The position numbers and the translations under genes were made by a program. From a virus (taxonomy: Duplodnaviria > Caudoviricetes), in IMG/VR virus record IMGVR_UViG_3300024243_000020, positions 1-57,545 of that record: a stretch of DNA of 57,545 nucleotides; one strand, written 5' to 3'. Under the pieces are notes generated by a model, which searched no databases, was not told the origin of the DNA, and saw only the letters and a list, made by a program, of their open reading frames with translations. Below, in pieces: positions 1,721 to 57,444 of the stretch. Numbering within the stretch: position 1 is the stretch's first letter; the number at the start of each line of letters is the position of its first letter.

Positions 1721-2692
1721 TTACATTCTCTCGGTTTTCTTAAATTTACAATTATCAAAGTGAAATCTATACATCACGGGTTTACCTCCACTTTTGTCAC
1801 AATGTGGACACGTAACTACTTCTTTAACTTCACCCATTTTAGAATTAGACATTTTAGCTCTAATCATATCAGCCTTTTCTTTACCAAATTTACATTCAAA
1901 AGATTTCCCTTTAAGTGATTTTGATATATTTTTTCTATGTTCATCACTAAAAATAATACCCTTTCTAGATTGACTCAATTTCTTTCTAATGATATTAGAT
2001 TTTTCTTCACCATATATGTCATTCCATGTTTGACCTTTAATATGTGATATTCGTCCTTTATGGCGTACACTTATCTTATCTTTAGATTCTTGTGATAATT
2101 TCGTTCCCAATTTAGCGATTCTAGAATTATTTTTCATTGTTTTAGCCTTTTTTTCACCATATAACTCTTCCCAATTTTTTCCCTTTTTACCATCGCTCAT
2201 TTTTTGCTTAGTTTCTTTAGTGTGTTTTCGACCCAACATACCAGAAACTTGTTTGCTTCTACCAATTCTTATTTTTTCCAAGGTTTCATCTGAATATATA
2301 TTTCTCTTACCTTTATTCCACGGTATATTACCTTTATGTGCATCACTCATTTTTTTACGTAACTCGTCTGAATATTCTATATACACACCATCACTTTTCA
2401 TATTACATAGTTTATCTAATCCAATATCTTTAATTGTCATACTTTCTAATCGTAACGCTTCACGTTCTTCTATATTTTCATGTAATTTAATATGCTTAAT
2501 ATCAATATCATTTTTTAACAATTTATTTATTTTATTAAACAAATGTCTATTATTATTAGATATTTTGCCAGATTTAGTGTGCTTAACATGATCATACATT
2601 CTATTATTTTTACCCTTACCAATATAAAACGATGTATTTGTAGATGAATCAATTAATGCATAAACATAATATATATTATTTACATTTTCCAT
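1721..2692 (-). CDS. Free-standing GIY-YIG (LEM-3-like) homing endonuclease with NUMOD3 repeats
   Basis: N-terminal YYVYALID...FYIGKG...RMYDH; repeated NUMOD3-like units (HTKETKQKMS, SDEHRKNISKS); C-terminal CPHC. Confidence 0.85.
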   Translation of the reverse strand: MENVNNIYYVYALIDSSTNTSFYIGKGKNNRMYDHVKHTKSGKISNNNRHLFNKINKLLKNDIDIKHIKLHENIEEREALRLESMTIKDIGLDKLCNMKSDGVYIEYSDELRKKMSDAHKGNIPWNKGKRNIYSDETLEKIRIGRSKQVSGMLGRKHTKETKQKMSDGKKGKNWEELYGEKKAKTMKNNSRIAKLGTKLSQESKDKISVRHKGRISHIKGQTWNDIYGEEKSNIIRKKLSQSRKGIIFSDEHRKNISKSLKGKSFECKFGKEKADMIRAKMSNSKMGEVKEVVTCPHCDKSGGKPVMYRFHFDNCKFKKTERM

Positions 2693-5600
2693 ATCATAGC
2701 CTTCAATAAATATTTATCACCATTACCATCTTCTAATGCTTGACCAATTATCTTTCCATGTAAATTTCTATTAAAAAGTCCAAATCGCTTTCCAGCTTTC
2801 ATACCACATCCAATTTTATCTGATGAAACTATATAGTCGCCCTCAGATATTTTACCAGTAATTAATATTTTTTCTGCTCCTTGAATCATCGGCTCATCTT
2901 TCCCATGCTTGACAATACCCATTACTCTATTGTCATATTCTTTATCACATGGTTGTAATTTATTATCTCTCCATATCACAACTGTTCCTGTTGGATTTGT
3001 TCCTATTTCTTTTGTTCTTAATCCTACTTCAAATACACCACCAGTTGTTGTTTGTACTGAATGAACATCTTTCCATCTATATGTTGTTGAACCTAAATTA
3101 TATGTATCATCTGCTGATGGTAATATATCTCCTGAGAATGATGCTGATGATGCTATCTCAATACTTGATGCTGATATATTTCCATTCACATGTAATTTAG
3201 TTTGTGGTGTTGTTGTGTTTATTCCAACATCACCAGCTGATGTCATTCTAACGATTTCACCATTAACATTGAACTCCATATAATCACCAGATTGTGTATT
3301 TAATACTATTTGTGATCTATTTGCTAATCCAATATATCTTTGATTATATCCAGAGCCACCAATATATAAATCATTTTGATTATCAAATTTCATCATATCA
3401 AAAACAGTACCTAGTGAGTTTACACCTTTGATACTTTGATTATTATCTAATAGAATGTCACCTGCAACATGTAATGATGCTGATGGTGTTGTTGTTCCAA
3501 TTCCAACATTTCCATCTTGTTGTATTATTACTCGATTAGCTAAAGTTGTACCAACATCATTTAATGTAGAAAAATAAAATTTACCACCAGATGTTGACAA
3601 TCTCCAATTCTCATCGGCACTACCATCAGTTTCCATAAACTGAACGTTTGGTTGTGTACTACTCAATTCAAACATACCTGTTGGATTTGTTGTTCCTACT
3701 CCCACATTTCCATTGAAATATCCCATTCCAAATGATCCTGTTGATGAATATGATTGGGATATATTTCCAGCCACTGTCAATGTTTCGACTGGTGTTGTTG
3801 TTCCGATTCCTACATTTCCACCACTCGTTGGAACTAAAGATACGTGGCTTGTTCCTTGAGGACTTGCTAATAAAATATTTCCCCCAGATTCAGCTAAAGC
3901 TAATTCATATGTTCCACCAACAACACCTGTTAACACAGTTCCTAAAGTACTATCAGTGTAAAGTTGACCAATATTTGAAGCAAAAGAATCTGTTCCAAAT
4001 CGTATTCCACCATTTACTTCTAATGATGCTGATGGTGTTGTTGTACCAATTCCAACATTTCCAGATGTATCTACAACGAAATCAGCATTATTATTTGTTC
4101 TTCCAATTTTAAATATGTCTGCTGGTGTTGAATCAACGCCTATTTCAAAATTAAGTGATCCAGCCGTTTTAAATTGAATCTTTGCATCTGCTCCTGATAT
4201 ACCTTTATCTAATATTAAGTTTGTGCTACTTGCACTTGAACTTATTTGTGTTGTTACACCACCAACTGAAGTTGAAAATGATGAATGTCCACCAGCTCCA
4301 CTTGACAATTCAAATAAGGCTGATGGTGTTGTTGTTCCAATTCCAACATATCCAGTTGTGGCTTTTACGGTCAATCTATCACTATTATCAGTTCTTAAAC
4401 TCATATCATGAGCTGTCATTGCTCCAGCGAATGCTTCACCTAAAGTACTTGTACCCATAACAAATTCAATATTATTTGTTACATCTCTACCCATGAAATA
4501 TGCACCACCATCACCTTGAACTGATACCATTCTTTTATTGGCTGATGTCCCTGTTGTTGATTCTTCATAAGTCACACCATTTTCTACAAATAATCCTGCA
4601 AATATGCCAGAGGTAGATGATCCTACAACATGTAATGATCCAGTTGGTGATGATGTACCAATTCCAACTCTACTTTGAACCACTAAACTATTTGATGAGC
4701 TTGGTTGTAATGGTGTATATGAACCACCAATAGCAACACTACTATTTGAATGTATTCCCATTGCATATGCACCAGCATAAAATCTCATAAAGTTATTGCC
4801 ACCAGTATATACATTTTGTATAAATGATTGTACACCACCAGTTGTTGAATTTGATAATCTTATTATTGGATTTGATGAGCTTATATGTAAATCATCTGAT
4901 GGTGATGTTGTTCCAATTCCTACATTTCCTGATGAATCAATTCTAACCCGTTCTGTTCCAGCTGTTGCAAATCTTAATGCTTGTGATTCTCTTAACCATA
5001 ATCCACCTGTACCAGACGCATCTACAAATACTGTCATACCATCTGTTGAACCACTACCCTGTCCATTTGATGTAATATGTAAATCAGTTTGTCCTGCTGA
5101 ATCTAAATGTAATAATCTAGCTGGATTATCTGTACCAATTCCTACAAGTCCTGATGAATCAATTCTCATTCGTTCTGTGCCTGATGTTGAAAAACCAATA
5201 TTTACAGCACTTGGGAAATACATTCCAATATTTCCATTTCCTGAATATGAGTATGAATTACCAGCAACGGTTCCAACTCCTGCTTTAAATTGATTTCCAA
5301 AAATAGTGCTAGTAGCACGTATAGTTCCAGTGATGTCTAAATTAAAAGCTGGACTTACTGTACCAATTCCCACGTTTCCACCACCTACAATCCAATGATC
5401 TCCTGATCCACTTACTCTTAATGAACCACTTATGCTTGTTATGTCTGTTGATGCATTTCCTAAATATGAATTACCATTTACTGTTAAATCATTTGTTATT
5501 GATATTGAATCATATGATGCTGAACCAGCAATGTCTAAATTTGAAGCAGATATTGTACCATTTACATGAAGTTTAGCTTGTGGTGATGTTGTGTTTATTC

Positions 5601-8600
5601 CAATGTCACCATCAGATTCAATAAATAATCTTGTATTTGCACCATCTGTTTGAAGTGCTATTCTTTTTCCTGATGATCCTTGCATATATGCATTACTTGA
5701 TCCATCATAACCAAATATTGCTCTTTGTCCAGTAAAAGATATTGTATTTGTTTCACTAGCTCCACCACCATTATTAACCCAAATATCATCACCTGCATAA
5801 ACATCATCTGTTGCTCTTAAATCATCACTTGCTTGTATAGTACCACTTACATCTAATTCATATGCTGGTGTTGCTGTTCCAATTCCTACATAACCAGATG
5901 CTGAAACTGTCATTCTTGTATCATCACCAACTCTAAATTTCATAAAATCATCATGTCTGTGATAAATCTGACCACTATTTAAATCACCAGTTGTTCCAAA
6001 ATTAATATATGAATCAAATGTTCCACCTGTACCTGTTAATTGAATTACACCACTAGTTCCTTCAATATCTAATAATTCGGCTGGTGTTGCTGTGCCAATT
6101 CCAACATTTCCATTACCTTGAACCGTCATTTTTATATTATCATCATCTTGTGAAACTTTTGTTGCAAAATGTATATCACCCGCATCATTATTATATTCAT
6201 TTCCTATGAATACTTCACCAGTTCCTGCATTTTCCCATATTGCCAATCCTTGTATAGAGCCAGCTGATACTCTAAAATAATCAGTTTCACTATTTAACCA
6301 ATTTGATCGAATATCACTTCTTACATGTAATGATGAAGATGGTGATACAGTTCCAATTCCTACATATCCATTTACATCTAATACTACTCTATGTAAAACA
6401 TCATCTGATCCAAAAGATAAAGCCCTATCTGTTTCACCACGAAATGTCAATGCTCGCTGACCATTACCCATGTTACCAGTCCAGCTTAATTTACCTTCAC
6501 TACCATTTCCAAATGATAATGTATCACCAAAGTCTCCTGTACCATCTACTTCTAATTTATATGATGGTGTTGTTGTGCCAATTCCTACATTTCCTGAAGA
6601 TAATATTGTTAAATTAGTTGCAGATATTGTATTTGCAAAACCTACATTTGCAGTTGATCCATTAGTAGCAACATATAAACTATCACTATTATCTTTTATT
6701 TCAAGTCCACAATAACCATCAGATGATTCTATTCTAACTGGGAAATCACTTGCATTATATACGTGAAGTGGAGCACTTGGTTCTACACCAATTCCAACTT
6801 GTTGTGATGAATTAATTATCACTGCCTCAGTTGCACCACTCGTATAGAATTTTAAATTACTACTACCATTTGTTGATAATATTCTTGATGATAATATTCC
6901 ATCAGCATAAAAATCTAAATTTGGATTTGCTGATGAATCTAATATTAATTCACTATCACCAGTACCACCAGAGATATGTAATAATCCACTAGGTAATGTT
7001 GTTCCAATTCCTACATTTCCTGAATTTAAATAAGTATATGTCGTTCCTGATTTTTCAGATGAGATTTGATTGACAATTGCACCATCACTATCTAACAATC
7101 TCCAAGTTGCACCGTCATCATCATCATTCCAAACTCGTAAAATATTGTTTCCAGCTGAATTCTTTAAAGTAAATAGTTGTTCATCACCTGAAGATTTCAC
7201 ATCTAATACTGAATCTGGACTTGTTGTTCCAATTCCTACATTTCCATCACTCCCTTGAACAAACAATGCACCATCTCCACCAGCCGTATCGACTTGAAAA
7301 TCAACATCAGCATTATCCCAATTAAAATGAATTATATTCTGTGTAGTTTCATCCAACTTTAAAAAATTAACAGCACCCGCTCTAAATTGCATTTCATCAG
7401 CAAGATAACGTAAATACGTATCTGTATCACCATTATGATATAAATATTGATCTAATCCAATATCTCCTGCAACATCTAAAGCATATGTAGGTGTTGTCGT
7501 ACCAATTCCTACATTACCATTTGAAATCCAATGATCACCTGATCCAGTTACTCTTAATGATCCACTAAACTGATGAATATCATCACTTGTATCTCCAAAT
7601 TTAGTACTACCACTTGAAAAGATTATTGATGAGGATACAAACTCTGTATGGAATTCTTGAGCAGTTACAGTTCCACCTACATCTAAATCATTTGTTATTG
7701 ATAAAGATGAATATGAAGCTGAACCTGCAATATCTAAATTGGATGCTGAAATTGTACCATTTACATGCAATCTTGCTTGTGGTATTTTTGTATTTATTCC
7801 AATTGAATTATCTGTACTAATCCATATTCCTGTTGGATTATTAGCTACTGGTAAATAACTCTGCATATGCCAACCATATTGACCATCAGTATTCAATCCA
7901 ATATCCAACTCACCAATATATTTGCCACCATCCAAGAACATTGAAAATTTATCAGGATATAATATCGACTTATTTACACCAGTAACGGTTTTATAATATG
8001 TAGTTGATGCTACCGATCCAGATAATATAATAAATGAGTTGTTTCCAAATTGATTCATTTCAATCAAATCTGTTGATTTATTATCTTGAGTGAAACTTAA
8101 TACATTTTTATCATTTTCGTATTTTATTTCAATTCTTTTTCCACCAGCAGATGTATTATGACCTACAAACAATGATCCAGTTAATAAATTATCTTCTTTT
8201 TCAATTACTAATGGTGCTCCTGCAAATGCTACATTTGAAGATGTTATTTGAACATCAATATCATTTAATTTTGTATAATCTTGAGCATATTCATTTAATT
8301 TATTTAAGAATCTTAATTTGAATACAACATCACCAGTTCTTCTTAATAATTGTGGCATTGGTATTGCCTGATTGTCTGATATTGGATTTAATCCCGATTG
8401 TGTGCTTGCTGATACTTCATATACTGAGCTTGATAATGGATATGTAGTAATAACAGTATATTCATTATTTATTGCTCTACCTTCATTATATGATAATTCA
8501 ATAAACTCTACTTTACCACCATATGTTTCTAAATGACTCGCACTTACATGAACATAACTTCTTTTATAATTATCATTATCTGTATCTAAATCGATACTTT

Positions 8601-24583: not shown

Positions 24584-27500
24584 TATAATACTTTCTCATC
24601 CTTTCCAATGATTGGTTCTTTCATATCACCATTTTTATCTACAATACCATCTGATATAGATAATGAATAATCACCGATTATTACACCTACATTTTCATTT
24701 CCACTACTATCTTCAACAAAATTATTTTCAAACTCATCAAAGTATAAATTAAAAATAAAATGTGTAGAATCAATTTTGTTTGTTATTATAGAATCTAAAT
24801 CTTCACCATCCCATTGTCTATTTGCACTACCAAACGGTATATTTTCTACATCGTTTATTTGTTGTAATCCTAATGTTTCATCAAAATTACCAAATTGATT
24901 AATCTTAGGTAATACTGGATAGTAGTATTCACCATGCCAATTCTGATTTGATTCTATATCTATATCATTATTAATTATACCATTTCTATTCACAACAGTA
25001 TAAGTATCTGGTATTATATTTTTCCAATATCTAATGTTATTTGGATTATCAAGTTCTTCATCTGTAAAGCCTAATAGTTCCCACATATTATATATTTTAT
25101 CAACATATAATGATGACTGATGAACATCAAACTGACCGAATGATTCACCAAGCTCACCCAATTCATTATACTCACCCGTATGTATCAAATATACTGGTTG
25201 AGTTATATCTAAATCACCAGAGGGTAGAAGTTCACCAACAAAATATCCAATAGCTGTTTCTGGGTCTAATTGATTGTTGTTTTCAAAATCATATAATTGT
25301 ACCGTAGATATATTACCATTATTAATATTATTAAATCGTTGAGATAATAATTCACCTTTATAATTTAAAAGAGTCTTACTTTTTTTATTATAATTCATAT
25401 TACTCAATGCTTCTAATGATTTAATTAATTTTGTATTATCATATATATCTTCAAATTTAGATAAATTTTCACCATATTTAGCAACATCTTCAACAGATTT
25501 ATAATATGTGCTTTGTTGTGAAATTCCACCCAATATCACATTTGTAATATTATTATGTGGGGTGCCATATGGTATAAATAAATAATCCAATCCACCAAAC
25601 TCTGTAAACTCATTATTTAATTTTAAATCATTATCATTAATATTAATCTTAACTTTAAAATTCTTAGCAAATGTTATTCTATATTGACTACCCTGTGTAA
25701 TAAATCTATGCACACCCATAATTAATCCACTAACAGTATAAATACCTGAATTTTCATATTTATGTGTTATCTCAGCAGTTGGATTACTTAATCCCATTTC
25801 AATATAATTGCTTGGATCGTTATATTCGCCTACTATATCTGAACCGTCACCAAAATCTAAATTAACCATGAATAATTTAAAATCAGTTAATTCTATATGA
25901 TTATTAATTAAATATGCATATATACTATCTAATGCTGTAATTTCATCAAAAATTGGAATCAATGGAAATAATGCACCTACTAAAAATGTTATTTCAACTG
26001 GTGCGCTAGTTATATCATATTCAACTAAAGATATTTTATTGTCATAATATCTATCCACAGACGTTGCAGATTGTATATTAGAAATAGTCATATCATCAAA
26101 TTCATTTAAAATTGTAGATGGTATTGGTTTCATTAATATTGTAAAATCATATAGATCCTCTGGATGTATATTTACATAATTAATGCTATTTTGAATTAAT
26201 TCATCTGATATGAATGTATATTCTTCTAATATATTTTTAAATACAGTTTGTGCATAAATTGCTTGATAATTATCTTGTTGGTCATCAAATGAGAATGTTC
26301 CTAATGCAACTCTTGTATCTCTATTACATTGTTCAAATACAACACTATTAGTTGATAATAGCTGAATGTTACAGCAATCATCTATATCGAAATTATAAAC
26401 GCACGTACCAATATCGACAGTAGAATATATATCATAATTTGTAGCTCTTGGATCAGTACAACCTAATGTTGGTTCTTGTGAATATGTGCAACTTCCATCA
26501 TCCCATGTAGCATCTGGATTGTAGTTTATCGCAGTTGGATTTGTACATCCACCAACACAAGTTGATCCATCACCACCACATATATCACATTCATCCAAAA
26601 CACTCCCTTCACAGTCACAATCACCATCTGGTATATCATTACAACCACATTCGTAAATGGCTCCGTCTCCGTCACATACACCACACTCATCAATTATCGC
26701 TCCACCATAACATTCATCATTACAATCAGGATATTCACATGATTCATCATCGATAGTAAATATAACATCATAATTACAAGCCGTTTCATCAGTACAGCCA
26801 TAACAAAAATCTTCATCTAATCCTGTTGTTCCACTTACACATCCACAATCACTTAAATAAGCATCACCATGACAAGTTCCTGAACAATCAACATCAAGAA
26901 AATTATTACCATTACAATCTCCACAATCATCAAGCCAATGTCCATCACAATCACAATATCCTGGTAAAATATCTGTACATCCACATTCATAAATATCTCC
27001 AGGACCATCACAAATACCACACACATCAATCTCAGCATCTCCACCCCAAACATCTAAACAATCTTGAACACACGGTTCATTATTTCCAGTATTCCCACCA
27101 ATACATATTCCACAATTATCTAAGTATGCTTGTCCAAAGCAATCATTATTACAATCTAATGCATAATTTTCTAATTGTCCAGTTAACCCTTCAACACAAT
27201 TACCACATGAATCAATAAAAGCATCACCAGCACATGTACCAAAACAATCTGGATCATTTGTAATGCATTCTGGAAATTCATCTCCAGTTATTAATACCCA
27301 ATTAACTGGCTCAGTTCCTGGGCAGAATAATACTCCAAAATCTCCACCGATCCCATCACCATCTAAGTCTAAATAATACATTTGTTCTGGTGGCTGATTA
27401 CATCCACAACCTACATCTAAATAATTCTCTACTAATCCAGTATTTCCACTAACACAAGCATCACAATCATCAATGAAGGCTGTACCAAAACAATCACCAT

Positions 27501-30500
27501 TACAATCTTTATTTGCATTACCACCATCACATATACCACAATCATCTATGATATTTGATTGACAGTTACAATTTGTTTCAAAATTATCATATGAAGTTAT
27601 ATCTTCAACGTATACATAATTTATTGGAATTGTATCTGGTGATGCGTTACATATTATTAATGGATTTTCAATACTAGAATCAACTAATAATGGATCACAT
27701 GGAATACCATCTCCATCTCCGTCATAATAAAAATAAACAGGATATTCACATAAATCATTGTTTACATGTTCTGGATTTAATACAAAATTACATGCTAATG
27801 GATCGTCACAATATTCATATTCACAACTACCATTATCTGTGTCACATGCTTGACAATAATTAATAGCGTCTGGATCAGTACATCCATAATGTAAACATTG
27901 ATCATGATTTAATACTTCATGTCCTTCATACGTATATACAATAGATATATCTGGTAAATGTAGACAATATGATTGATTTAATTCTAACGTTTGTAATGAA
28001 CCAACCCAACCATTTACTGTATACATTGTGGCTAATCCAAGTGTTGAAATTTGTGTACCAAGTGTTAATAATTGAGGACTAACAAAATATTCTGGATTCA
28101 TTACATCTGCTGTTGCATTTGAACCTGGAAAATAATTAAATGAAATAGTTATAATGTGAGGTTCACCAAATACACACATTCCATTATCTATTGTAGCATT
28201 TGGATCATAATTATTTGCCAATTCGTTTGTACAACCATAACACCAATTTTCAGTCAATCCTGTGTTTCCTCCTATACATCCACACTCACTTATAATGGCT
28301 TCACCGTCACAAATACCAGCGCAATCAAATTCATTTGAAATACAAGAATCATCAACATCATCACAGTTTTGTATATAATTATCTGGTTGTTCACCAGGAC
28401 ATACAAACATTTCAGTTGATGCATCTCCAAAACCATCACCATCAACATCTGCACAATAACGAGTAGTATATACGCAACTATCATTATCATATATTGCAGT
28501 ATCACTATAATTACATGCTCCTACATCAGTACAACCAAAACCATCTTCATTTGAAATGAATTCACAACAACCGTCATCGTTACAAAATTCAAATCCAATT
28601 GGCTCACCATCTCGTTCATTAAATTCAAACAACCCACTACATTCGGCATTATTTATACATGATATGCTATTTGGACATTGATCAAAATATTCACAATTAC
28701 CATCATCGTGTGTTGCATTTTCATTATAGTTCAATGCAAGTGGATCAGTGCAACCAAAAATCACACAACTACCATCATCAACATCAGCATCTGGATTATA
28801 ATTATTAGCTTCAGGATTAGTGCATCCATAAATAGTATATGTACATGAGCCATCATTATCAGTTGCAATTGGATCATAATTATTTGCATTTGGATCAGTA
28901 CATCCATAATATATACAACCAGTGTTAATAGTATAAATATCATCAAACGCTGGATCATAATTATCAGCATCAACTTCCATACAACCATAACAAAAATTCA
29001 CAACCAATCCTGTTGTTCCACCAACACATCCACATTCAGTTTCAAATGCAGAACCATTACATTCACCAGCACAATCTACAACAAATCCATCAAAACAAGT
29101 ATCATCTGGATCGTCACAATTCGATACAAAACCAATAGGTACATCACTTGGACAAAACATTTGTGGATCACCTGCACCATATCCATCACCATCTTCATCA
29201 TAACAATATTCAGCTTGATATGTACAGTTACCACCATCTTGAGTAGCTTCAGGATTATAATTACACGCTGTTTCATCCATACAGCCATATACTAAATATG
29301 TACATGAATCATCATCTATTTCTGCGTATTGATTATAATTCATAGCTAATGGATCAGTACAACCATAACAGAAAGTTTCTGGTAGTGTTGTTAATCCACC
29401 AACACAACCACACTCATTTACAAACGCTTCACCATCACAAATGCCAGCACAATCGTAAGTATTTGATGTGCAAGAGTCATCAACATCACCATTATTCAAT
29501 ATGTAATTCTCTGGTTGTGTGCCAGGGCAATATTCTTGAAAAATATCAGGATTTCCTAATCCATCTCCATCTAAATCTTCATAGTATGTTATTGGATATG
29601 TGCAACAATTATCGCATGGAGATGTATTATCATTATCATAGTTACATGCTGTTTCATCTTGACATCCAACATGCGCACATGTATTAGGTGATAATATATT
29701 TAAATCTGGATATGAATATTGTATCGATGTATCGGGTAATAATAAACAATATGATTTATTTAAATCTAATGTTTGAATATCTCCAGACCACTCACCATTT
29801 GAATAAGCAGATGATTCATTTGTTGTAAATAGGTGTGCATATGTCATTATATCCGAATTTGAAAAATATTGAATATCCAATACATCATTAATTAAATCTG
29901 TACTAACAAATGAATTAAACATAATAGTTTGTATATAAAACATTGCATATTCACAAGTACCATTATTAATAATAGCGGTAGGATCATAATTAATAGCCCC
30001 TGAGTCAGTACATCCATAACACCAAGTCTCAGAAAGTCCAGTTGATCCACCAACACATCCACATTCATTTATAGTAGCATCACCGTTACATGTACCAGTA
30101 CAATCAAATATATTGGAGAAACATTCATCATCTAAATCAACACAATTTAGCACATAGTTATCAGGAACATCATTTGGACAAAATGCTTGAGAATTATTAG
30201 AATCACCTAACCCATCTCCATCATTATCATAACAATATTCAACTTGCATAATACAACCTTGATTTATATTAGCATTAAAATTATAATTACAAGCAAGTGG
30301 ATTCATACATCCATATACTTCTATAATTTCTTCATTTTCATATATACAACTACCATCATCAATAGTCGCACTTGGATTATAATTTAATGCTGATTCATCC
30401 ATACACCCATATATCACAACATTATTATATAACGATGAAACTCCAGCATAAAAATTGGCTTTTGGTGGTAACATATCTGGAGTTATTTCATCTTGACTAT

Positions 30501-31641
30501 TAAAAAATGTTAAATTACTAATTTGATTGTCAATATTATCACCAGTGTTTACAATTATATTAATTAAATCTTCTGATGATAATGTATTATCATGTGACAA
30601 TAACAATCCAGCATACCCAGATATTAATGGAGTTGAATAACTAGTACCCACCCCAGTTTTCCATGAATCTTGATCGTCATCACACGTTTGAGTTGCATCA
30701 TCACATATATTTATACCTGAACTATTAAATAATTTCCCATGATGTCCAGCCCCACCACTCCAAGTATCACCATATGATTCATGTGGTTTTTTTGTATATG
30801 GATATAGTAATCCTGGGTCTTTACCGTGTGTTACTATATCAACATTTAAACCATAATTGAAATAATTAAGTGTACCAAATCCAAATCTGTCTATAATGTC
30901 AATTCCACTTACAGTGAATGTTATTCCCCAATGTGGAGGATTTACAAAATTACCTAATGGAGTCGGCTCATCAACATCTATGCCAGAATTACCTGCTGAA
31001 TTTACATATAATATACCAGAATCAATTGCATTTGTAACAGCCTCGTGTAATGATATATAAGAAGGGCTTGTCTCACTAATCGTAACCGTATCACTAACCG
31101 ATATTATATCAACGCCATTATCTATTGCATATTGAATAGCTAAATATGTACCTCTATATGAATTTGGAACTTTTAAAAACATAATTTTACAATTTGGACA
31201 TACACCATGTGTACCTTCTTCTGCATTACCAGATGATATTATACCAGCAACAGCAGTTCCATGAAAAAATGTTGGCTCCAAATTATCATTATTCTCACCT
31301 TCTGTAAAGTTCCAACCGTGCGTTCCATTGACACATGGGGCATCACCATTCATGAACTCACTAACAGTCCCACCATCTTCACATATCCATCTATTATTTT
31401 GAAAGCTAGGATGCTCTAAATCAAATCCAGTATCAATAACTGCAATAACAGGTGAATATTCACCAGCACCAAATTCATCTATTGATTGTTTCCATCCAGT
31501 AAGATTAGCATGATTCCTAAGCGAATCAAAATCTTCGTGTGAACATCCACCGTGTCTACACAGACCAGCATCTTCTATGTTATTTAAATACCATTCGTAC
31601 ATAAATAATGAACTACTTATTGTATAATTGTTAATTGGCAT
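24583..31641 (-). CDS. S8 subtilisin-like protease + Cys-rich GCTD repeats + PKD-like C-terminal region
   Basis: Triad VIAVIDTG (D), HGTAVAGII (H), GTSYSTP (S), oxyanion SAGN; many GCTDxxAxNY...DDGSC and DxDGDG repeats; LDFGDGS...HKYENSGIYTV. Confidence 0.85.
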   Translation of the reverse strand: MPINNYTISSSLFMYEWYLNNIEDAGLCRHGGCSHEDFDSLRNHANLTGWKQSIDEFGAGEYSPVIAVIDTGFDLEHPSFQNNRWICEDGGTVSEFMNGDAPCVNGTHGWNFTEGENNDNLEPTFFHGTAVAGIISSGNAEEGTHGVCPNCKIMFLKVPNSYRGTYLAIQYAIDNGVDIISVSDTVTISETSPSYISLHEAVTNAIDSGILYVNSAGNSGIDVDEPTPLGNFVNPPHWGITFTVSGIDIIDRFGFGTLNYFNYGLNVDIVTHGKDPGLLYPYTKKPHESYGDTWSGGAGHHGKLFNSSGINICDDATQTCDDDQDSWKTGVGTSYSTPLISGYAGLLLSHDNTLSSEDLINIIVNTGDNIDNQISNLTFFNSQDEITPDMLPPKANFYAGVSSLYNNVVIYGCMDESALNYNPSATIDDGSCIYENEEIIEVYGCMNPLACNYNFNANINQGCIMQVEYCYDNDGDGLGDSNNSQAFCPNDVPDNYVLNCVDLDDECFSNIFDCTGTCNGDATINECGCVGGSTGLSETWCYGCTDSGAINYDPTAIINNGTCEYAMFYIQTIMFNSFVSTDLINDVLDIQYFSNSDIMTYAHLFTTNESSAYSNGEWSGDIQTLDLNKSYCLLLPDTSIQYSYPDLNILSPNTCAHVGCQDETACNYDNDNTSPCDNCCTYPITYYEDLDGDGLGNPDIFQEYCPGTQPENYILNNGDVDDSCTSNTYDCAGICDGEAFVNECGCVGGLTTLPETFCYGCTDPLAMNYNQYAEIDDDSCTYLVYGCMDETACNYNPEATQDGGNCTYQAEYCYDEDGDGYGAGDPQMFCPSDVPIGFVSNCDDPDDTCFDGFVVDCAGECNGSAFETECGCVGGTTGLVVNFCYGCMEVDADNYDPAFDDIYTINTGCIYYGCTDPNANNYDPIATDNDGSCTYTIYGCTNPEANNYNPDADVDDGSCVIFGCTDPLALNYNENATHDDGNCEYFDQCPNSISCINNAECSGLFEFNERDGEPIGFEFCNDDGCCEFISNEDGFGCTDVGACNYSDTAIYDNDSCVYTTRYCADVDGDGFGDASTEMFVCPGEQPDNYIQNCDDVDDSCISNEFDCAGICDGEAIISECGCIGGNTGLTENWCYGCTNELANNYDPNATIDNGMCVFGEPHIITISFNYFPGSNATADVMNPEYFVSPQLLTLGTQISTLGLATMYTVNGWVGSLQTLELNQSYCLHLPDISIVYTYEGHEVLNHDQCLHYGCTDPDAINYCQACDTDNGSCEYEYCDDPLACNFVLNPEHVNNDLCEYPVYFYYDGDGDGIPCDPLLVDSSIENPLIICNASPDTIPINYVYVEDITSYDNFETNCNCQSNIIDDCGICDGGNANKDCNGDCFGTAFIDDCDACVSGNTGLVENYLDVGCGCNQPPEQMYYLDLDGDGIGGDFGVLFCPGTEPVNWVLITGDEFPECITNDPDCFGTCAGDAFIDSCGNCVEGLTGQLENYALDCNNDCFGQAYLDNCGICIGGNTGNNEPCVQDCLDVWGGDAEIDVCGICDGPGDIYECGCTDILPGYCDCDGHWLDDCGDCNGNNFLDVDCSGTCHGDAYLSDCGCVSGTTGLDEDFCYGCTDETACNYDVIFTIDDESCEYPDCNDECYGGAIIDECGVCDGDGAIYECGCNDIPDGDCDCEGSVLDECDICGGDGSTCVGGCTNPTAINYNPDATWDDGSCTYSQEPTLGCTDPRATNYDIYSTVDIGTCVYNFDIDDCCNIQLLSTNSVVFEQCNRDTRVALGTFSFDDQQDNYQAIYAQTVFKNILEEYTFISDELIQNSINYVNIHPEDLYDFTILMKPIPSTILNEFDDMTISNIQSATSVDRYYDNKISLVEYDITSAPVEITFLVGALFPLIPIFDEITALDSIYAYLINNHIELTDFKLFMVNLDFGDGSDIVGEYNDPSNYIEMGLSNPTAEITHKYENSGIYTVSGLIMGVHRFITQGSQYRITFAKNFKVKININDNDLKLNNEFTEFGGLDYLFIPYGTPHNNITNVILGGISQQSTYYKSVEDVAKYGENLSKFEDIYDNTKLIKSLEALSNMNYNKKSKTLLNYKGELLSQRFNNINNGNISTVQLYDFENNNQLDPETAIGYFVGELLPSGDLDITQPVYLIHTGEYNELGELGESFGQFDVHQSSLYVDKIYNMWELLGFTDEELDNPNNIRYWKNIIPDTYTVVNRNGIINNDIDIESNQNWHGEYYYPVLPKINQFGNFDETLGLQQINDVENIPFGSANRQWDGEDLDSIITNKIDSTHFIFNLYFDEFENNFVEDSSGNENVGVIIGDYSLSISDGIVDKNGDMKEPIIGKDEKVL

Positions 31642-42202: not shown

Positions 42203-42572
42203 TGGTGGAGGTGGGGGTATCGAAACCCCGTCCTGAATACTCTACATATATAGTCGTTCACAAGTTTTGATTATTTTTTTTTGCAACCTATGCGAAAAAA
42301 TTTAACTAAAAAAACGCATTTTTTTTAATGTTGTTGTACATCCAAAATAATAAAACAAACAATCCATTATATTTCGCCAAATGAACATGGCTATCAGATT
42401 AATGTCCCTTAATGCATATCTGAGTCAAACATTAAGAGTGCTGTTTATACGTATTACTACGCTACAGCGTGATAGTTATAATCGTTTCCAATTACTTTTG
42501 TTGTGATTGTTAAGTCAATCAATCTACTTGCACTACATATTTCAAAAATCCAGTCGAAACCAAGTCACCCCC
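42203..42572 (-). ncRNA. ssrA: tmRNA, tag peptide (A)GNDYNYHAVA
   Basis: 5' GGGGGTGA...TTCGAC; 3' GGACGGGGTTTCGATACCCCCACCTCCACCA; G3-U70 pair; tag ORF 42457..42489 followed by tandem stops. Confidence 0.93.
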
Positions 42573-43167: not shown

Positions 43168-43737
43168 TTAATCAGCAATTATTATCCAATCGTTCAATAA
43201 ATATTGAGATGCCTTTTTATATTTTATTACTTTTGTCTGCACACCATCTGATATTGTTATCTTTTCATTTGGTTTATATTTCGTCTTCACTGTTCTCATA
43301 ATTGTCTTAATTCGTCGATCATACATGGTTTTACCATCCAAGTGATCTATCTCATGTTGAATTGCAATACATTCTAAAGTCTTGTGGTGATTGTTTGGCA
43401 TTACTTCAAATACCATATCATCATAATTATCTGATGATACTGTTACTTTTGAAAATCTTTCAGTTTTAATTTTTTTATTTTTAAATGATAAACATGATTC
43501 TAAATATATATATTTTCCAGATGATTCAATAATTTCTGGATTTATAAAATATAATGGTTCATCGATATTTAAAACACATACTCGTTTATTTATTCCAATT
43601 TGATTTGCCGCTAATGCCACTCCAGTTTTATGTAATTTTAATTCATTTAATAATTTAGCCGATATTTCTTCACCTTCAATTATATCATTGACTTTTTCAC
43701 ATTCTTTTGATAATCTATATTTGTCTGTTACTATCAT
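43168..43737 (-). CDS. def: Peptide deformylase
   Basis: GVALAANQIG, ESCLS, QHEIDHLDG motifs. Confidence 0.93.
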   Translation of the reverse strand: MIVTDKYRLSKECEKVNDIIEGEEISAKLLNELKLHKTGVALAANQIGINKRVCVLNIDEPLYFINPEIIESSGKYIYLESCLSFKNKKIKTERFSKVTVSSDNYDDMVFEVMPNNHHKTLECIAIQHEIDHLDGKTMYDRRIKTIMRTVKTKYKPNEKITISDGVQTKVIKYKKASQYLLNDWIIIAD

Positions 43738-48532: not shown

Positions 48533-48988
48533 TTATTTTTTATTTTTTTTCCAAAACTCTTGATGAAACCTGTAATCAATTATCTTTACACTTTTTATCT
48601 CTTTCATTTTATATGTTCGATATACACTATTTGTTATTTTTGATTTTAAAACCTTCTTTAAACGTGAATAATAAAACTTCTGTGAATTTGATATATCAAC
48701 CTTAAAAAAAGGTAGTCTTAGCTTATCTAAAAATTTACTTCTCTTGGTTAATGTCTCACCCGTTATTTTTATTATCGTCTGTAATTGATCTTCACTGACA
48801 TAATTTATATTTAAGCCATGTAATAAATTCTTTTTATCTTTTCCTAAATATAATACATATGGATTTTTATCATGTACGTTTTTTCCAGAATATGAAAAAC
48901 GAATGATATGTCCAGGTTTAAATTTACCTTTGACTTTTGATCTTTTTTCTGATATAATGTTCTTTTTATGTTCTCTTAAATATTTCAT
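48533..48988 (-). CDS. Possible DNA end-protector (T4 gp2-like) protein
   Basis: GHIIRFSY...DKNPYVL...HGLNINY pattern; basic. Confidence 0.4.
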   Translation of the reverse strand: MKYLREHKKNIISEKRSKVKGKFKPGHIIRFSYSGKNVHDKNPYVLYLGKDKKNLLHGLNINYVSEDQLQTIIKITGETLTKRSKFLDKLRLPFFKVDISNSQKFYYSRLKKVLKSKITNSVYRTYKMKEIKSVKIIDYRFHQEFWKKNKK

Positions 48989-48995
48989 ATTTTTG

Positions 48996-49070
48996 TACTC
49001 CCGAAAGGATTTGAACCTTCATGTGTCGTTAGCCTTTCAACGGGATCGAACTCCGAGGGCATACGGGAGC
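48996..49070 (-). ncRNA. Atypical tRNA-Arg(TCG)-like RNA lacking a canonical D arm
   Basis: GCTCCCG/CGGGAGT acceptor, GAAGG-TTCAAAT-CCTTT T arm, loop GT-TCG-AT; only ~6 nt before the anticodon arm, ~20 nt after it. Confidence 0.6.
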
Positions 49071-49072
49071 AT

Positions 49073-52861: not shown

Positions 52862-52863
52862 TG

Positions 52864-52936
52864 TGGTGCGAGTTGGGATCGAACCAACATATCTTGGGCT
52901 TCACTCAAGTACCTTAACCACATCGGACTCCGCACC
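52864..52936 (-). tRNA. tRNA-Phe(GAA), atypical
   Basis: GGTGCGG/TCGCACC acceptor, canonical T arm, loop GT-GAA-GC; A8, weak D stem, A31-C39 mismatch. Confidence 0.7.
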
Positions 52937-54480: not shown

Positions 54481-54496
54481 TTTTTCTTCTATTTTG

Positions 54497-54581
54497 AGGG
54501 ATGAGTCAGATTCGAACTGACGTGAGAATTTCTTCTAATGGCTTTGCAAACCACCCTATTCAACCACTCTAGCACCATCCC
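54497..54581 (-). tRNA. tRNA-Cys(GCA) with long variable arm
   Basis: Loop TT-GCA-AA, U73, AGAA-GAAA-TTCT extra arm. Confidence 0.82.
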
Positions 54582-55105: not shown

Positions 55106-55413
55106 ATTATAATTTTACCGTTTACGATCTTTGCTAATTGTCCAGAATATTTCAACATCTTCTTTCTTGCAATCATCATCTGTTTAAGTGTGATGAATCC
55201 ACGCTTATGATAAAACTTAACAAAACTCGACATGATCATTGCATCAGCACCTGTAAATCCTACACCATTATCATGATTTGTACTATCAGACTGTTGTTCA
55301 TCAAAAGTCTGCAACTCAAAAATCTTACACATTCCACGTAGAACTGCTTCATCTCGTGTTTCTAACAGTTTACGAATTTCTTCTTTTTTCCAAATTCTTT
55401 TTGTGTTCGTCAT
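55102..55413 (-). CDS. Hypothetical phage protein (start moved to ATG 55413)
   Basis: QTFDEQ...NGVGFTGADA; TAAGGA upstream of MTNTKR. Confidence 0.65.
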   Translation of the reverse strand: MTNTKRIWKKEEIRKLLETRDEAVLRGMCKIFELQTFDEQQSDSTNHDNGVGFTGADAMIMSSFVKFYHKRGFITLKQMMIARKKMLKYSGQLAKIVNGKIII

Positions 55414-55501
55414 GTGTGTTTCCTTATGTATTGTTGTCAATTAACTATGTAAATTTAAGAATAAATACACATATAAAAAAACACTTATTTTCATTCATTT
55501 G

Positions 55502-55577
55502 CGGAGCATAAGGGTTTCGAACCCTCCTGATATTCTACGTGACAGGCAGATGACCACACCAAGCAGTCCCATACTCC
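55502..55577 (-). tRNA. tRNA-Asp(GTC)
   Basis: Cloverleaf, loop CT-GTC-AC, G73. Confidence 0.85.
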
Positions 55578-55586
55578 AAATAATAC

Positions 55587-55693
55587 AGTAGATGTTCTTA
55601 ACCGATATTCAACTATGCCGAAGATATACGAATTATATCCCAAGCTGAGATTCGAACTCATTAAAGCCAGTGAGCTCCCACATGGCATCTACT
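55587..55693 (-). ncRNA. Circularly permuted tRNA-like RNA (Y RNA / YrlA-like)
   Basis: Terminal stem AGTAGAT/ATCTACT; internal order: extra hairpin, T arm TGAG-TTCGAAT-CTCA, loop-closed acceptor-like stem, D-like arm with GG. Confidence 0.6.
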
Positions 55694-55696
55694 TTG

Positions 55697-55768
55697 CGCG
55701 TACTGAAAGTTTCGAACTCTCCCATCGGGGTTTGGAATCCCAATCGCCACCAAGGAACATTAGCACGC
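55697..55768 (-). tRNA. tRNA-Trp(CCA), atypical D arm
   Basis: GCGTGCT/AGTACGC acceptor, loop TT-CCA-AA, G73, canonical T arm. Confidence 0.75.
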
Positions 55769-56000
55769 AAATTATGATTGATATATTATTTTGTTTCTTA
55801 TGGTGTTTGCTGGTTGTTTCCAGAAATAATATATTATATGATTTCACATACAATGTATCGTCATTGTATGTCCAATATATAATCCACAGTTCTCTACTAC
55901 ATATACAATGAATAACCAGTTCGATATCCAACTATTCGTTACTATATATTTCAATGAAACCTACCCTCCACGGATAGTGTGTCTATTATCAATCAATTAT

Positions 56001-56140
56001 ATGTGAATAGTGTGTTATTACACCAAAGGGATGCAGTTTCTTTCACCTGTCACTCAGTTTATAAACTCTGATCATTGAACTTTCGTTCTTTCCCCACTCA
56101 TTAAAAGATGGCTACCTCTAAGCCAACTTCCTATTCACAT
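56001..56140 (-). ncRNA. 23S rRNA H43/H44 (uL11-binding GTPase centre) mimic RNA with internal insertion
   Basis: 10-bp terminal stem ATGTGAATAG/CTATTCACAT; AGGAAGTTGGCTTAGAGGTAGCCATCTTTTAATGAG and GTGTAATAACACACT align to E. coli 23S 1054-1089 and 1091-1105. Confidence 0.85.
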
Positions 56141-56143
56141 TTG

Positions 56144-56223
56144 TTGCGGACACGGGAGTCGAACCGCGTTATTTCCGGGTTATGAGCCCAGCGTGATTTA
56201 TGTGTCCATTTCACTCGCCCGCT
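56144..56223 (-). tRNA. tRNA-fMet(CAT), initiator-type with enlarged D loop
   Basis: A1-A72 mismatch, GGG/CCC anticodon stem, loop CT-CAT-AA. Confidence 0.82.
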
Positions 56224-56944: not shown

Positions 56945-56966
56945 TTCATTTCATCTCTTTCATTTG

Positions 56967-57037
56967 TCTGGTACATTGAGTCTGAGTCAATCAGTCCATG
57001 TTTCCAAAACACAGATGCCACCGTAGGTCAGTACCAG
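56967..57037 (-). ncRNA. Atypical tRNA-Pro(TGG)-like RNA
   Basis: Perfect CTGGTAC/GTACCAG acceptor with C1-G72 and A73; 7-bp stem around TT-TGG-AA; non-canonical T loop CTCAGAC. Confidence 0.6.
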
Positions 57038-57134: not shown

Positions 57135-57335
57135 TCATTCTTCTACATATTTCATATACCATTCAGCGTTATTAGTTCTGATATATCCTATTACCCATAT
57201 AAAAGCTGTTACTATCAATCCTTGCACCATAACTGATGGTAATGTAAATATACACCATAATAGTAAATTGAATAATACTCCAACACAAAATACTACAACA
57301 GCAAGTGCTATTAGTTTTTCTTTTAGATCAGTCAT
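57135..57335 (-). CDS. Small membrane protein
   Basis: Two hydrophobic helices; AAGGA upstream. Confidence 0.6.
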   Translation of the reverse strand: MTDLKEKLIALAVVVFCVGVLFNLLLWCIFTLPSVMVQGLIVTAFIWVIGYIRTNNAEWYMKYVEE

Positions 57336-57353
57336 TTTTTTCCTTTTTATTTG

Positions 57354-57444
57354 AGCTGACAGTAGGATTCGAACCTACGTGGGAGAACTTATCTATCCAC
57401 CTGATTACAAGTCAGGACCTGTCGACCGCTTAGGTAATGTCAGC
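57354..57444 (-). tRNA. tRNA-Thr(TGT) with long variable region
   Basis: GCTGACA/TGTCAGC acceptor, CCTGA-CTTGTAA-TCAGG, ~21-nt variable region. Confidence 0.85.

Follow-up and report, generated by a model that had tools for sequence, protein, structure and literature searches.

The RNAs nearest in design to the element described here are the bacterial and mycobacteriophage Y RNAs of the YrlA type (Rfam RF02553), in which the variable region, T arm, closed acceptor stem-loop and D arm follow one another within an enclosing stem. Members of the family bind Ro60, are encoded beside its (TROVE) gene and have T and D loops modified by TruB and DusA. Wang et al. (2018, bioRxiv 10.1101/312249) place the Ro60 site of all characterised Y RNAs in a long stem made by the RNA ends, note that many YrlA RNAs have long variable loops, and propose an origin from dimeric tRNAs. 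YrlA RNAs occur in phages, and a motif near the 5' end, GNCGAAN0-1G, is linked to binding of Rsr (Ro60) (Chen et al. 2014, PMC4201824). In the same account the YrlA RNA of M. smegmatis, which is encoded next to rsr and binds Rsr, has a closed acceptor of exactly 7 bp that is cut by RNase P and receives CCA; among the YrlA RNAs, only the one with exactly seven pairs was seen there to be cleaved by RNase P. In the permuted tRNA genes of unicellular algae and archaea the leader and trailer form a bulge-helix-bulge (BHB) motif, the transcript is circularised by a splicing endonuclease and a ligase, then cut open by RNase P together with tRNase Z, and the known permutation junctions include 37/38 (Soma 2014, PMC3978253). 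The same source names the two-piece transfer-messenger RNA (tmRNA) that comes from permuted ssrA genes. Here we describe an element of 107 nt, at 55587-55693 on the minus strand of the IMG/VR virus record IMGVR_UViG_3300024243_000020, which has the module order of the YrlA RNAs and lies between tRNA-Trp and tRNA-Asp in a phage tRNA array. The window, ie the whole stretch of DNA analysed, is this entire record (57,545 bases, 30% G+C); it is estimated to be about 26% complete, and the absence of any gene from it therefore covers only that share of the genome. The element is a real tRNA-derived, circularly permuted, sealed look-alike of a tRNA. The reading that we favour, and in which we place about even confidence, is that it is an anticodon-less, sealed tRNA mimic, derived from a tRNA-Tyr and released through the processing of its neighbours.

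Between the discriminator base of tRNA-Trp and the 5' end of the element there are 3 nt, and 9 nt separate its 3' end from tRNA-Asp. Its parts and the two spacers, read 5' to 3' along the minus strand, are as follows.

55694-55696, minus strand: 3-nt spacer CAA, after the discriminator base of tRNA-Trp
55687-55693, minus strand: terminal stem, 5' strand AGTAGAT, 7/7 Watson-Crick with 55587-55593
55666-55686, minus strand: variable-arm hairpin GCCA-T-GTG/CAC-TGGC, class-II type, 21 nt (4 bp, 1-nt bulge, 3 bp, 6-nt loop)
55661-55665, minus strand: linker TTTAA, joining variable hairpin to T arm, last base A
55646-55660, minus strand: T arm TGAG-TTCGAAT-CTCA, 4-bp stem, loop TTCGAAT with G-C closing pair, recovered by the T-arm scan as well
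55617-55645, minus strand: closed acceptor-equivalent hairpin GCTTGGGATATA-ATTCG-TATATCTTCGGC, 29 nt, 11/12 positions paired, 3 of them G-U
55614-55616, minus strand: linker ATA, giving a U8/A9-like UA ahead of the D stem
55594-55613, minus strand: D-like arm GTT/AAC, 3-bp stem, 14-nt loop with GG
55587-55593, minus strand: terminal stem, 3' strand ATCTACT, equal to the anticodon-stem 5' strand plus loop positions 32-33
55578-55586, minus strand: 9-nt spacer GTATTATTT to tRNA-Asp, first three bases GTA (55586-55584)

A previous model-made interpretation, here called the sequence-only reading, had listed these segments from the letters alone. Direct reading of the sequence recovered every piece on that list, in the same order and on the minus strand, with the linker TTTAA as an additional segment; the coordinates and the flanking genes that had been given are correct too. 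AGTAGAT is the counterpart of the 3' strand of a tRNA anticodon stem together with loop positions 37-38. The proposal that the tRNA modules are in circularly permuted order, with the acceptor closed by a loop and the ends in the anticodon stem, is borne out as well: ARAGORN, run in circular mode at a relaxed threshold, reads a cloverleaf, and we accept the permuted cloverleaf as real. No base is left unpaired at three of the four helix junctions. The variable hairpin is kept both in the minimum free energy (MFE) fold and in the proposed fold and is drawn as a variable arm by ARAGORN, which pairs the D arm in another register with two of four positions paired. The T loop TTCGAAT with its G-C closing pair, the GG in the D loop and the UA ahead of the D stem are all present, and these are the elbow bases of tRNAs and YrlA RNAs (Wang et al. 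2018, bioRxiv 10.1101/312249). There are 11 T arms with a TTCGA or TTCAA loop closed by G-C on the minus strand of the array; two of them lie outside called tRNAs, that of the element and one at 49004-49020.

The seven tRNA-like positions of the acceptor-equivalent helix comprise three Watson-Crick pairs, three G-U pairs and one C-T mismatch, after which come five A-T pairs and the pentaloop ATTCG (55629-55633). This makes it the weakest acceptor in the array, with three Watson-Crick pairs against five to seven in 13/13 tRNAs. Scripted scoring gave no acceptor mismatch in 12 of those 13 tRNAs and two in tRNA-Ser(gct), which we attribute to a register shift caused by the CCA encoded in that gene. 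The combination of a weak acceptor helix with five further A-T pairs and a pentaloop suits a helix that is to remain shut better than one destined for opening and charging.

Several other identities for the element were considered and rejected. As a linear, canonical tRNA it is recognised by neither type of tool: no Rfam match of the tRNA clan (RF00005) falls on 55587-55693 at E<=10, and linear ARAGORN makes no call even at -ps90, ie 90% of the default threshold. A coding sequence was discarded as the open reading frames (ORFs) concerned, 55491-55688 on the minus strand and 55615-55911 on the plus strand, overlap tRNA-Asp or tRNA-Trp. An RNA from the plus strand was discarded too, the T loop being correct on the minus strand only and all the tRNAs being on that strand.

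Chance was gauged with dinucleotide shuffles, 20000 in number: in 98 of them a 7-bp Watson-Crick stem linked the two ends of the 119-nt spacer, and in 16 this stem was accompanied by a 12-bp hairpin with at least 11 positions paired. When the unchanged sub-sequence was supplied as a circle, ARAGORN returned a 98-nt class-II tRNA-Tyr(GTA) with a long variable arm, a call which stands from -ps97 to -ps90 (97% to 90% of the default threshold). Four of 50 end combinations were called (Tyr gta twice, Phe gaa once and Leu caa once), and calls occur whenever the retained flanking bases total three, which yields a 7-nt loop. In controls at -ps90, calls were obtained for 2 of 6970 circular 110-nt tiles outside the array and for 4 of 3000 shuffles. 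Among the array-wide output seen, the junction-spanning calls away from annotated tRNA genes were the four variants of the element and a few with odd anticodons at 57271-57378. A tandem-tRNA false positive was rejected as the source of the element's calls, since no complete tRNA overlaps it.

The sequence-only reading had called the element Y RNA-like, and as an analogy of topology the label is apt: the element shows the YrlA module order (variable region, T arm, closed acceptor stem-loop, D arm and enclosing stem), with the equivalent of the anticodon stem as its enclosing helix. It further shares with YrlA RNAs the T- and D-loop elbow bases, the UA before the D stem, the lack of a free CCA end and the lack of an anticodon, and its long variable arm also has counterparts in many of them, according to the reports cited above. 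As a family assignment the label does not hold. The YrlA model RF02553 (114 positions, gathering score 69 bits), which describes a family with strongly conserved T and D stem sequences, matched neither 55400-55900 nor the record as a whole at E<=10 (in the latter three candidates scored, none reported), and the motif GNCGAAN0-1G is absent at and upstream of the 5' end of the element. The terminal stem is short, 7 bp, as had been noticed, and with tRNA genes 3 and 9 nt away there is thus no room for a Ro60-binding helix. The element is not a member of the YrlA family as defined. It differs from YrlA RNAs also in lying inside a tRNA array, with ends that appear to be set by the neighbouring tRNAs, in having a purine as the last base of the variable region, and in its 12-bp acceptor hairpin, which is longer than a tRNA acceptor stem. 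The M. smegmatis YrlA RNA is likewise a permuted tRNA-like RNA with a full-length closed acceptor, but the helix of the element continues for five more pairs.

These observations bear on the possibility that the element is a genuine Y RNA bound to a Ro60/Rsr protein whose gene would lie in the host or in that portion of the phage genome which the window does not cover. Its topology is that of YrlA, long variable loops and an occurrence in phages are both on record for YrlA RNAs (bioRxiv 10.1101/312249; PMC4201824), and only about a quarter of the genome is covered by the window. Set against this are the failure to match RF02553, the missing motif and the 7-bp end stem with no Ro60-binding helix. 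The window was also said to hold no Ro60 gene, and a search of it with PF05731 (TROVE) indeed gave 0 matches at E<=1, while the D. radiodurans and B. thetaiotaomicron genomes, used as controls, were both matched. We regard a Ro60-bound Y RNA as very improbable. Relative to the YrlA type of design, what is probably new here is the lack of a Ro60 module, the position within a tRNA array, the class-II character and a probable tyrosine origin.

The second comparison is with permuted tRNA genes. Like those of algae and of Thermofilum pendens, the element has the 3' half upstream, an intervening sequence that closes the acceptor, and its break in the anticodon loop; on joining of the ends a complete cloverleaf is obtained (ARAGORN circular mode, -ps97 to -ps90), albeit with a sub-standard D stem and acceptor. 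It differs from them in lacking a BHB motif, in belonging to a bacterial host, in having a weak and over-extended acceptor, and in that no joined form was seen, whereas their own mature product is a CCA-ended, aminoacylated tRNA. Each flank belongs to the acceptor stem of a neighbouring tRNA, leader and trailer remain unpaired and no BHB motif can be drawn; the best leader-trailer duplex is worth -5.1 kcal/mol, and 964 of 1000 shuffled leaders pair at least as well. A permuted tRNA gene of the algal and archaeal type is accordingly rejected, as its leader and trailer should pair and here they do not. The splicing endonuclease is not known from bacteria.

The sequence-only reading had raised as an alternative that joined ends could give a GTA (Tyr) loop, ie a permuted tRNA gene. 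As a reading of the sequence this is sound, since the GTA at 55586-55584 would become a tyrosine anticodon upon joining and ARAGORN calls tRNA-Tyr(gta) at that junction, but three other junctions are called too (Tyr, Phe gaa and Leu caa). A true permuted gene for tRNA-Tyr, or tRNA-Leu, would have its ends trimmed and ligated into an anticodon loop, its acceptor opened and CCA added, and would take part in decoding. Such a gene would account for the circular calls, Tyr(gta) for two junctions and Leu(caa) for the one that uses exactly the 3-nt CAA spacer, as well as for a prospective loop, CTGTAAG, close to the CTGTAAA of the tRNA-Tyr of a related phage contig (L223, described below), and for the A that follows the 7-bp acceptor equivalent. 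None of the 13 tRNAs of the window is a Tyr or Leu isotype, which would leave a place for it, and CCA addition would be needed in any case because the other tRNAs here have no encoded CCA, tRNA-Ser(GCT) alone carrying it in the gene. In M. smegmatis, moreover, a YrlA RNA with a 7-bp closed acceptor is RNase P-cut and given CCA (PMC4201824). On the other side, the route depends on precise cutting at two places, on a ligase and on a helix of 12 bp being opened; the three G-U pairs and one mismatch in the seven acceptor positions, locked by five more pairs, should hinder RNase P; and the leader-trailer duplex is as poor as described. No RNA ligase or polynucleotide kinase was found among 58 ORFs of the record scanned with Pfam, and the search for RtcB that had been suggested found none in it either. 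In the titles and abstract openings listed by our literature searches on permuted tRNA and phage, no permuted tRNA gene is described from a phage or a bacterium. A true permuted tRNA gene is hence, in our judgement, improbable, and slightly more doubtful still is its specific version, a working gene whose ends are joined by a phage or host RNA ligase without BHB motif or splicing endonuclease and which is then processed by RNase P and CCA addition.

In the precursor of a two-piece tmRNA, too, a permuted tRNA-like domain has its acceptor closed by an intervening segment, and a tmRNA carries a tag reading frame and pseudoknots. Permuted ssrA is thus a bacterial precedent for a permuted tRNA-like domain, but in the 107 nt of the element there is no room for a tag frame or pseudoknots. 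A two-piece tmRNA was rejected for the further reason that ARAGORN and Rfam find a tmRNA only at 42203-42572, and that one is one-piece.

The element is likely derived from a class-II tRNA-Tyr. The features that point to tyrosine are the CTGTA/AG loop, formed when the 3' flank CT-GTA meets the 5' end AG to read CTGTAAG, the long variable arm, and the A after the seven acceptor-equivalent positions. The comparison was extended to L223, a phage contig encoding a peptide deformylase (PDF) 46% identical to that of the window and taken from 80 loci around PDF relatives. At 5516-8111 it has a dense array of 26 tRNAs upstream of PDF, the same placement as in the window. Its tRNA-Tyr(GTA), at 6191-6278, is canonical and class-II, 88 nt long, has the loop CTGTAAA and stands beside Cys, Asp and Trp; here the element is between Trp and Asp, with Cys next. 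In the ARAGORN drawing the D stem of this tRNA-Tyr is preceded by a 3-nt linker and nucleotide 26 is missing, and the element shares that unusual spacing under the D-arm pairing of the sequence-only reading. The two therefore have in common the long variable arm, the loop CTGTAA-, the A after the acceptor, the 3-nt linker, the missing nucleotide 26 and the Cys/Asp/Trp context, and differ in that the L223 gene has the normal order and a strong acceptor (six Watson-Crick pairs and one G-U). The 76-nt gap between Tyr and Asp in L223 contains no T-loop motif.

The sequence, the helices and the position in the array are direct observations, and so is the presence of the whole stretch in RNA libraries. 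Contigs assembled from RNA runs of two studies span the entire element at a depth of about 4, one (X15) covering 55511-55692 and the other (X16) 55549-55699. Both end within 7 nt of the 5' end of the element, a weak hint of an RNA 5' end there, and no RNA contig covers tRNA-Trp (55704-55791). Joined ends were absent from the assembled contigs of four RNA runs, material which displays neither ends, strand nor rare joined forms. An assembly chimera was rejected: 14 DNA runs, from seawater or other marine sources, hold all the sampled 31-mers of 55300-56000, and the RNA-run contigs of both studies agree with the element at every base they cover. In the scan for promoters and terminators nothing turned up beside the element on the minus strand, and promoter-like sites overall numbered 5 against 5.7 expected.

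The RNA contigs also drew attention to two places further upstream. The non-coding interval 55793-56087 on the minus strand, between a tRNA-Met-like gene and tRNA-Trp, is covered by RNA contigs in four studies, at a depth far above that of the adjacent ORF (in X15, 600 against 15). Rfam gives nothing there at E<=1 and the fold z-score is -1.5; the interval may encode an abundant small RNA of the phage or yield a processing product that is stable. At 56101-56132, 32 nt with two differences match very abundant short contigs in all four RNA runs, at depths in the thousands, which are unrelated beyond that stretch; this signal probably comes from an abundant RNA of another organism that shares the stretch.

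The favoured reading, that of a sealed tRNA mimic, can be set out as follows, the processing steps, the three-dimensional fold, the tyrosine origin and the mimic function being what we infer. The element would be co-transcribed with the tRNA array and would have no promoter or terminator of its own. Its 5' end would be set by the 3' maturation of tRNA-Trp, 3 nt upstream, and its 3' end by the RNase P cut at the 5' end of tRNA-Asp, 9 nt downstream. We suggest co-transcription and release of this kind because no promoter- or terminator-like site accompanies the element on its strand and because the sites at which its neighbours are processed fall at its two ends. Release would yield an RNA of some 107-119 nt, folded into a tRNA-like L shape through contact between the T and D loops. 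Having neither a chargeable end nor the means to read codons, it would resemble the effector module of a YrlA RNA minus its Ro60 handle, and might serve, for example as a decoy or a platform, to engage proteins that bind tRNAs by their elbow or body. Conceivable partners are tRNA-modifying enzymes and those defence nucleases of the host that target tRNAs.

Relatives of the element were sought by DNA patterns, by blastn, with a covariance model built from its single sequence (R1), and by synteny with five neighbouring or nearby proteins; no homologue was found. An exact 22-mer over the T arm and acceptor had 0 loci in viral_contigs, while an exact 17-mer had four, all ordinary tRNAs or fragments, the best of which scored 19.8 bits with R1 through its T arm only. 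A two-block pattern (T loop ... D loop) gave five viral loci, all five with tRNA arrays, and the two best R1 matches among them (20.0 and 18.1 bits) straddle the junction of neighbouring tRNA genes. The same pattern had more than 120 loci in metagenome_contigs, of which 80 were kept, with a best R1 score of 16 bits (E 0.08). Across the 85 loci of the combined set, 23 pattern matches lay within two called tRNAs, and the 20 loci with neither block in a called tRNA had no Rfam match at the pattern. With blastn against 50,697 phage records, the element produced short matches in seven records, under protein-coding or unannotated sequence only, and a 701-nt query was matched only in its tRNA-Asp part.

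Synteny was no more productive. No relatives of protein P0001 (in viral and metagenome contigs), the AAA ATPase or the RNaseH-like protein were found. The baseplate protein has 286 relatives, the 80 listed being 34-58% identical, and R1 found the element in 0 of 30 related baseplate records; that result says nothing, because 0 of the 50 baseplate records searched hold any tRNA, and the sole one long enough upstream contains none. In the 80 PDF-syntenic loci (1.29 Mb) R1 had 0 matches at E<=1, and a generic scan of their 39 orphan T arms gave only weak or artefactual 'permuted' calls. With no homologue there is no evidence from covariation or conservation, and function therefore rests on one sequence. 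This lack of relatives is the main weakness of every functional reading.

Several other points tell against a functional mimic. The base before the T stem, which forms the Levitt pair (position 48), is a non-canonical A; in tRNAs and YrlA RNAs it is usually a pyrimidine (Wang et al. 2018, bioRxiv 10.1101/312249). The D stem has 3 bp only. The circular ARAGORN call is absent at -ps99 and at the default threshold, the circular test falsely reports a tandem Ile-Val tRNA pair as permuted, and it makes weak calls at 6 of 39 orphan T arms of other phage loci (about 2400 circles per arm). The MFE z-score is -1.11, with 26 of 200 shuffles folding at least as well, and the proposed fold, at -26.1 kcal/mol, lies 2.3 above the MFE of -28.4, in which the T-arm region is re-paired. 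The RNA contigs are shallow and extend into tRNA-Asp, and could represent precursor RNA or library DNA. Finally, the halves of the element are no closer to the L223 tRNA-Tyr than to other tRNAs, sharing generic tRNA features only, although likeness of sequence is uninformative here because between the two arrays tRNAs with the same anticodon (58-73% identity) resemble each other no more closely than those with different anticodons.

Much of this would be expected if the element were a decaying relic, ie the functionless remains of a tRNA-Tyr gene that had been tandemly duplicated or rearranged, passively transcribed in a fast-evolving array. A singleton with the R1 results given above, a degenerate acceptor helix, a weak D stem, the unusual position 48 and an unremarkable fold energy all agree with that, and the related array of L223 has an ordinary tRNA-Tyr instead. 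A relic would nevertheless need two separate trimmings that stopped exactly at the anticodon stem and left a perfect 7-bp stem, of the kind seen in 98 of 20000 shuffles. It should not be expected to have a spacer between its halves that makes five extra perfect A-T pairs, nor helices that abut with 0 nt at three of the four junctions, nor an intact T loop and D-loop GG. We consider decay unlikely and retain the sealed mimic as the preferred reading.

All the long ORFs of the window are on the minus strand. They include genes for a baseplate wedge protein, an SbcC-like protein, a primase, a GIY-YIG homing endonuclease, PDF and an RNaseH-like protein, and this gene content, together with a one-piece tmRNA, led us to regard the record as part of the genome of a large, tailed, bacterial virus. 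The tRNA array occupies the minus strand from about 48.99 kb to the contig end and is interrupted by small ORFs. ARAGORN called nine tRNAs at default and 13 at the 90% threshold (-ps90), all 13 within the array and 0 elsewhere in the 57.5-kb window. The array may extend past the contig end, so the count of 0 Tyr and 0 Leu isotypes among the 13 refers to the window only. The immediate neighbours of the element and the tmRNA are the following.

55501-55577, minus strand: tRNA-Asp(GTC), downstream neighbour, called by ARAGORN at default, Rfam 31.8 bits
55696-55768, minus strand: tRNA-Trp(CCA), upstream neighbour, called by ARAGORN at the 90% threshold only, Rfam 18.6 bits against the tRNA-Sec model
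42203-42572, minus strand: one-piece tmRNA, ARAGORN and Rfam, 105 bits, tag GNDYNYHAVA

The tmRNA adjoins the PDF gene (43168-43737, minus strand) and the array starts upstream of PDF, forming a translation-related module. The tRNAs of this phage are generally atypical. Those for Phe (52863-52936), Trp (55696-55768), Met (56145-56222) and Pro (56966-57037), all on the minus strand, were called by ARAGORN only at the 90% threshold; in Rfam, Phe scored 38 bits, Met 23 bits and Trp weakly. The tRNA-Met has a very large D loop. Cys and Thr tRNAs normally belong to class I, where a long variable arm is unusual, and here both tRNA-Cys(GCA) (54496-54581, minus strand, 86 nt) and tRNA-Thr(TGT) (57353-57444, minus strand, 92 nt) have one; tRNA-Cys(GCA) retains a T after the acceptor stem.

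A second odd tRNA-like element lies at 48993-49072 on the minus strand, directly 3' of tRNA-Ser(GCT) and just before an ATG at 48988. An acceptor-type stem of 8 bp is present, as is a good T arm with the loop TTCAAAT; an anticodon arm is not recognisable, and at the place expected for the D arm there is a second T-loop-like motif, GTTCGATC. It receives no ARAGORN call even at the 90% threshold and no Rfam match, and its MFE z-score is -0.94. Elsewhere in the window, 24586-31641 (minus strand) encodes a protein of 2352 aa with an N-terminal subtilase domain (E 1e-29), and the GIY-YIG/NUMOD3 homing endonuclease gene (1724-2692, minus strand) is placed between a tail-fibre-like gene and an ORF of 2137 aa.

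Whether it is a mimic or a permuted tRNA gene, the element is missed by standard tRNA and Rfam annotation. If the permuted-tRNA reading were true, this would be the first such gene outside algae and archaea, and would imply a new maturation route in bacteria and their viruses. Phage tRNA arrays are usually read as decoding sets which adjust translation or replace tRNAs destroyed by host defences. If the element is instead the sealed mimic that we favour, such arrays would also deliver tRNA-shaped RNAs with other roles, and would do so independently of Ro60, the protein with which the permuted tRNA-like architecture has been described so far.

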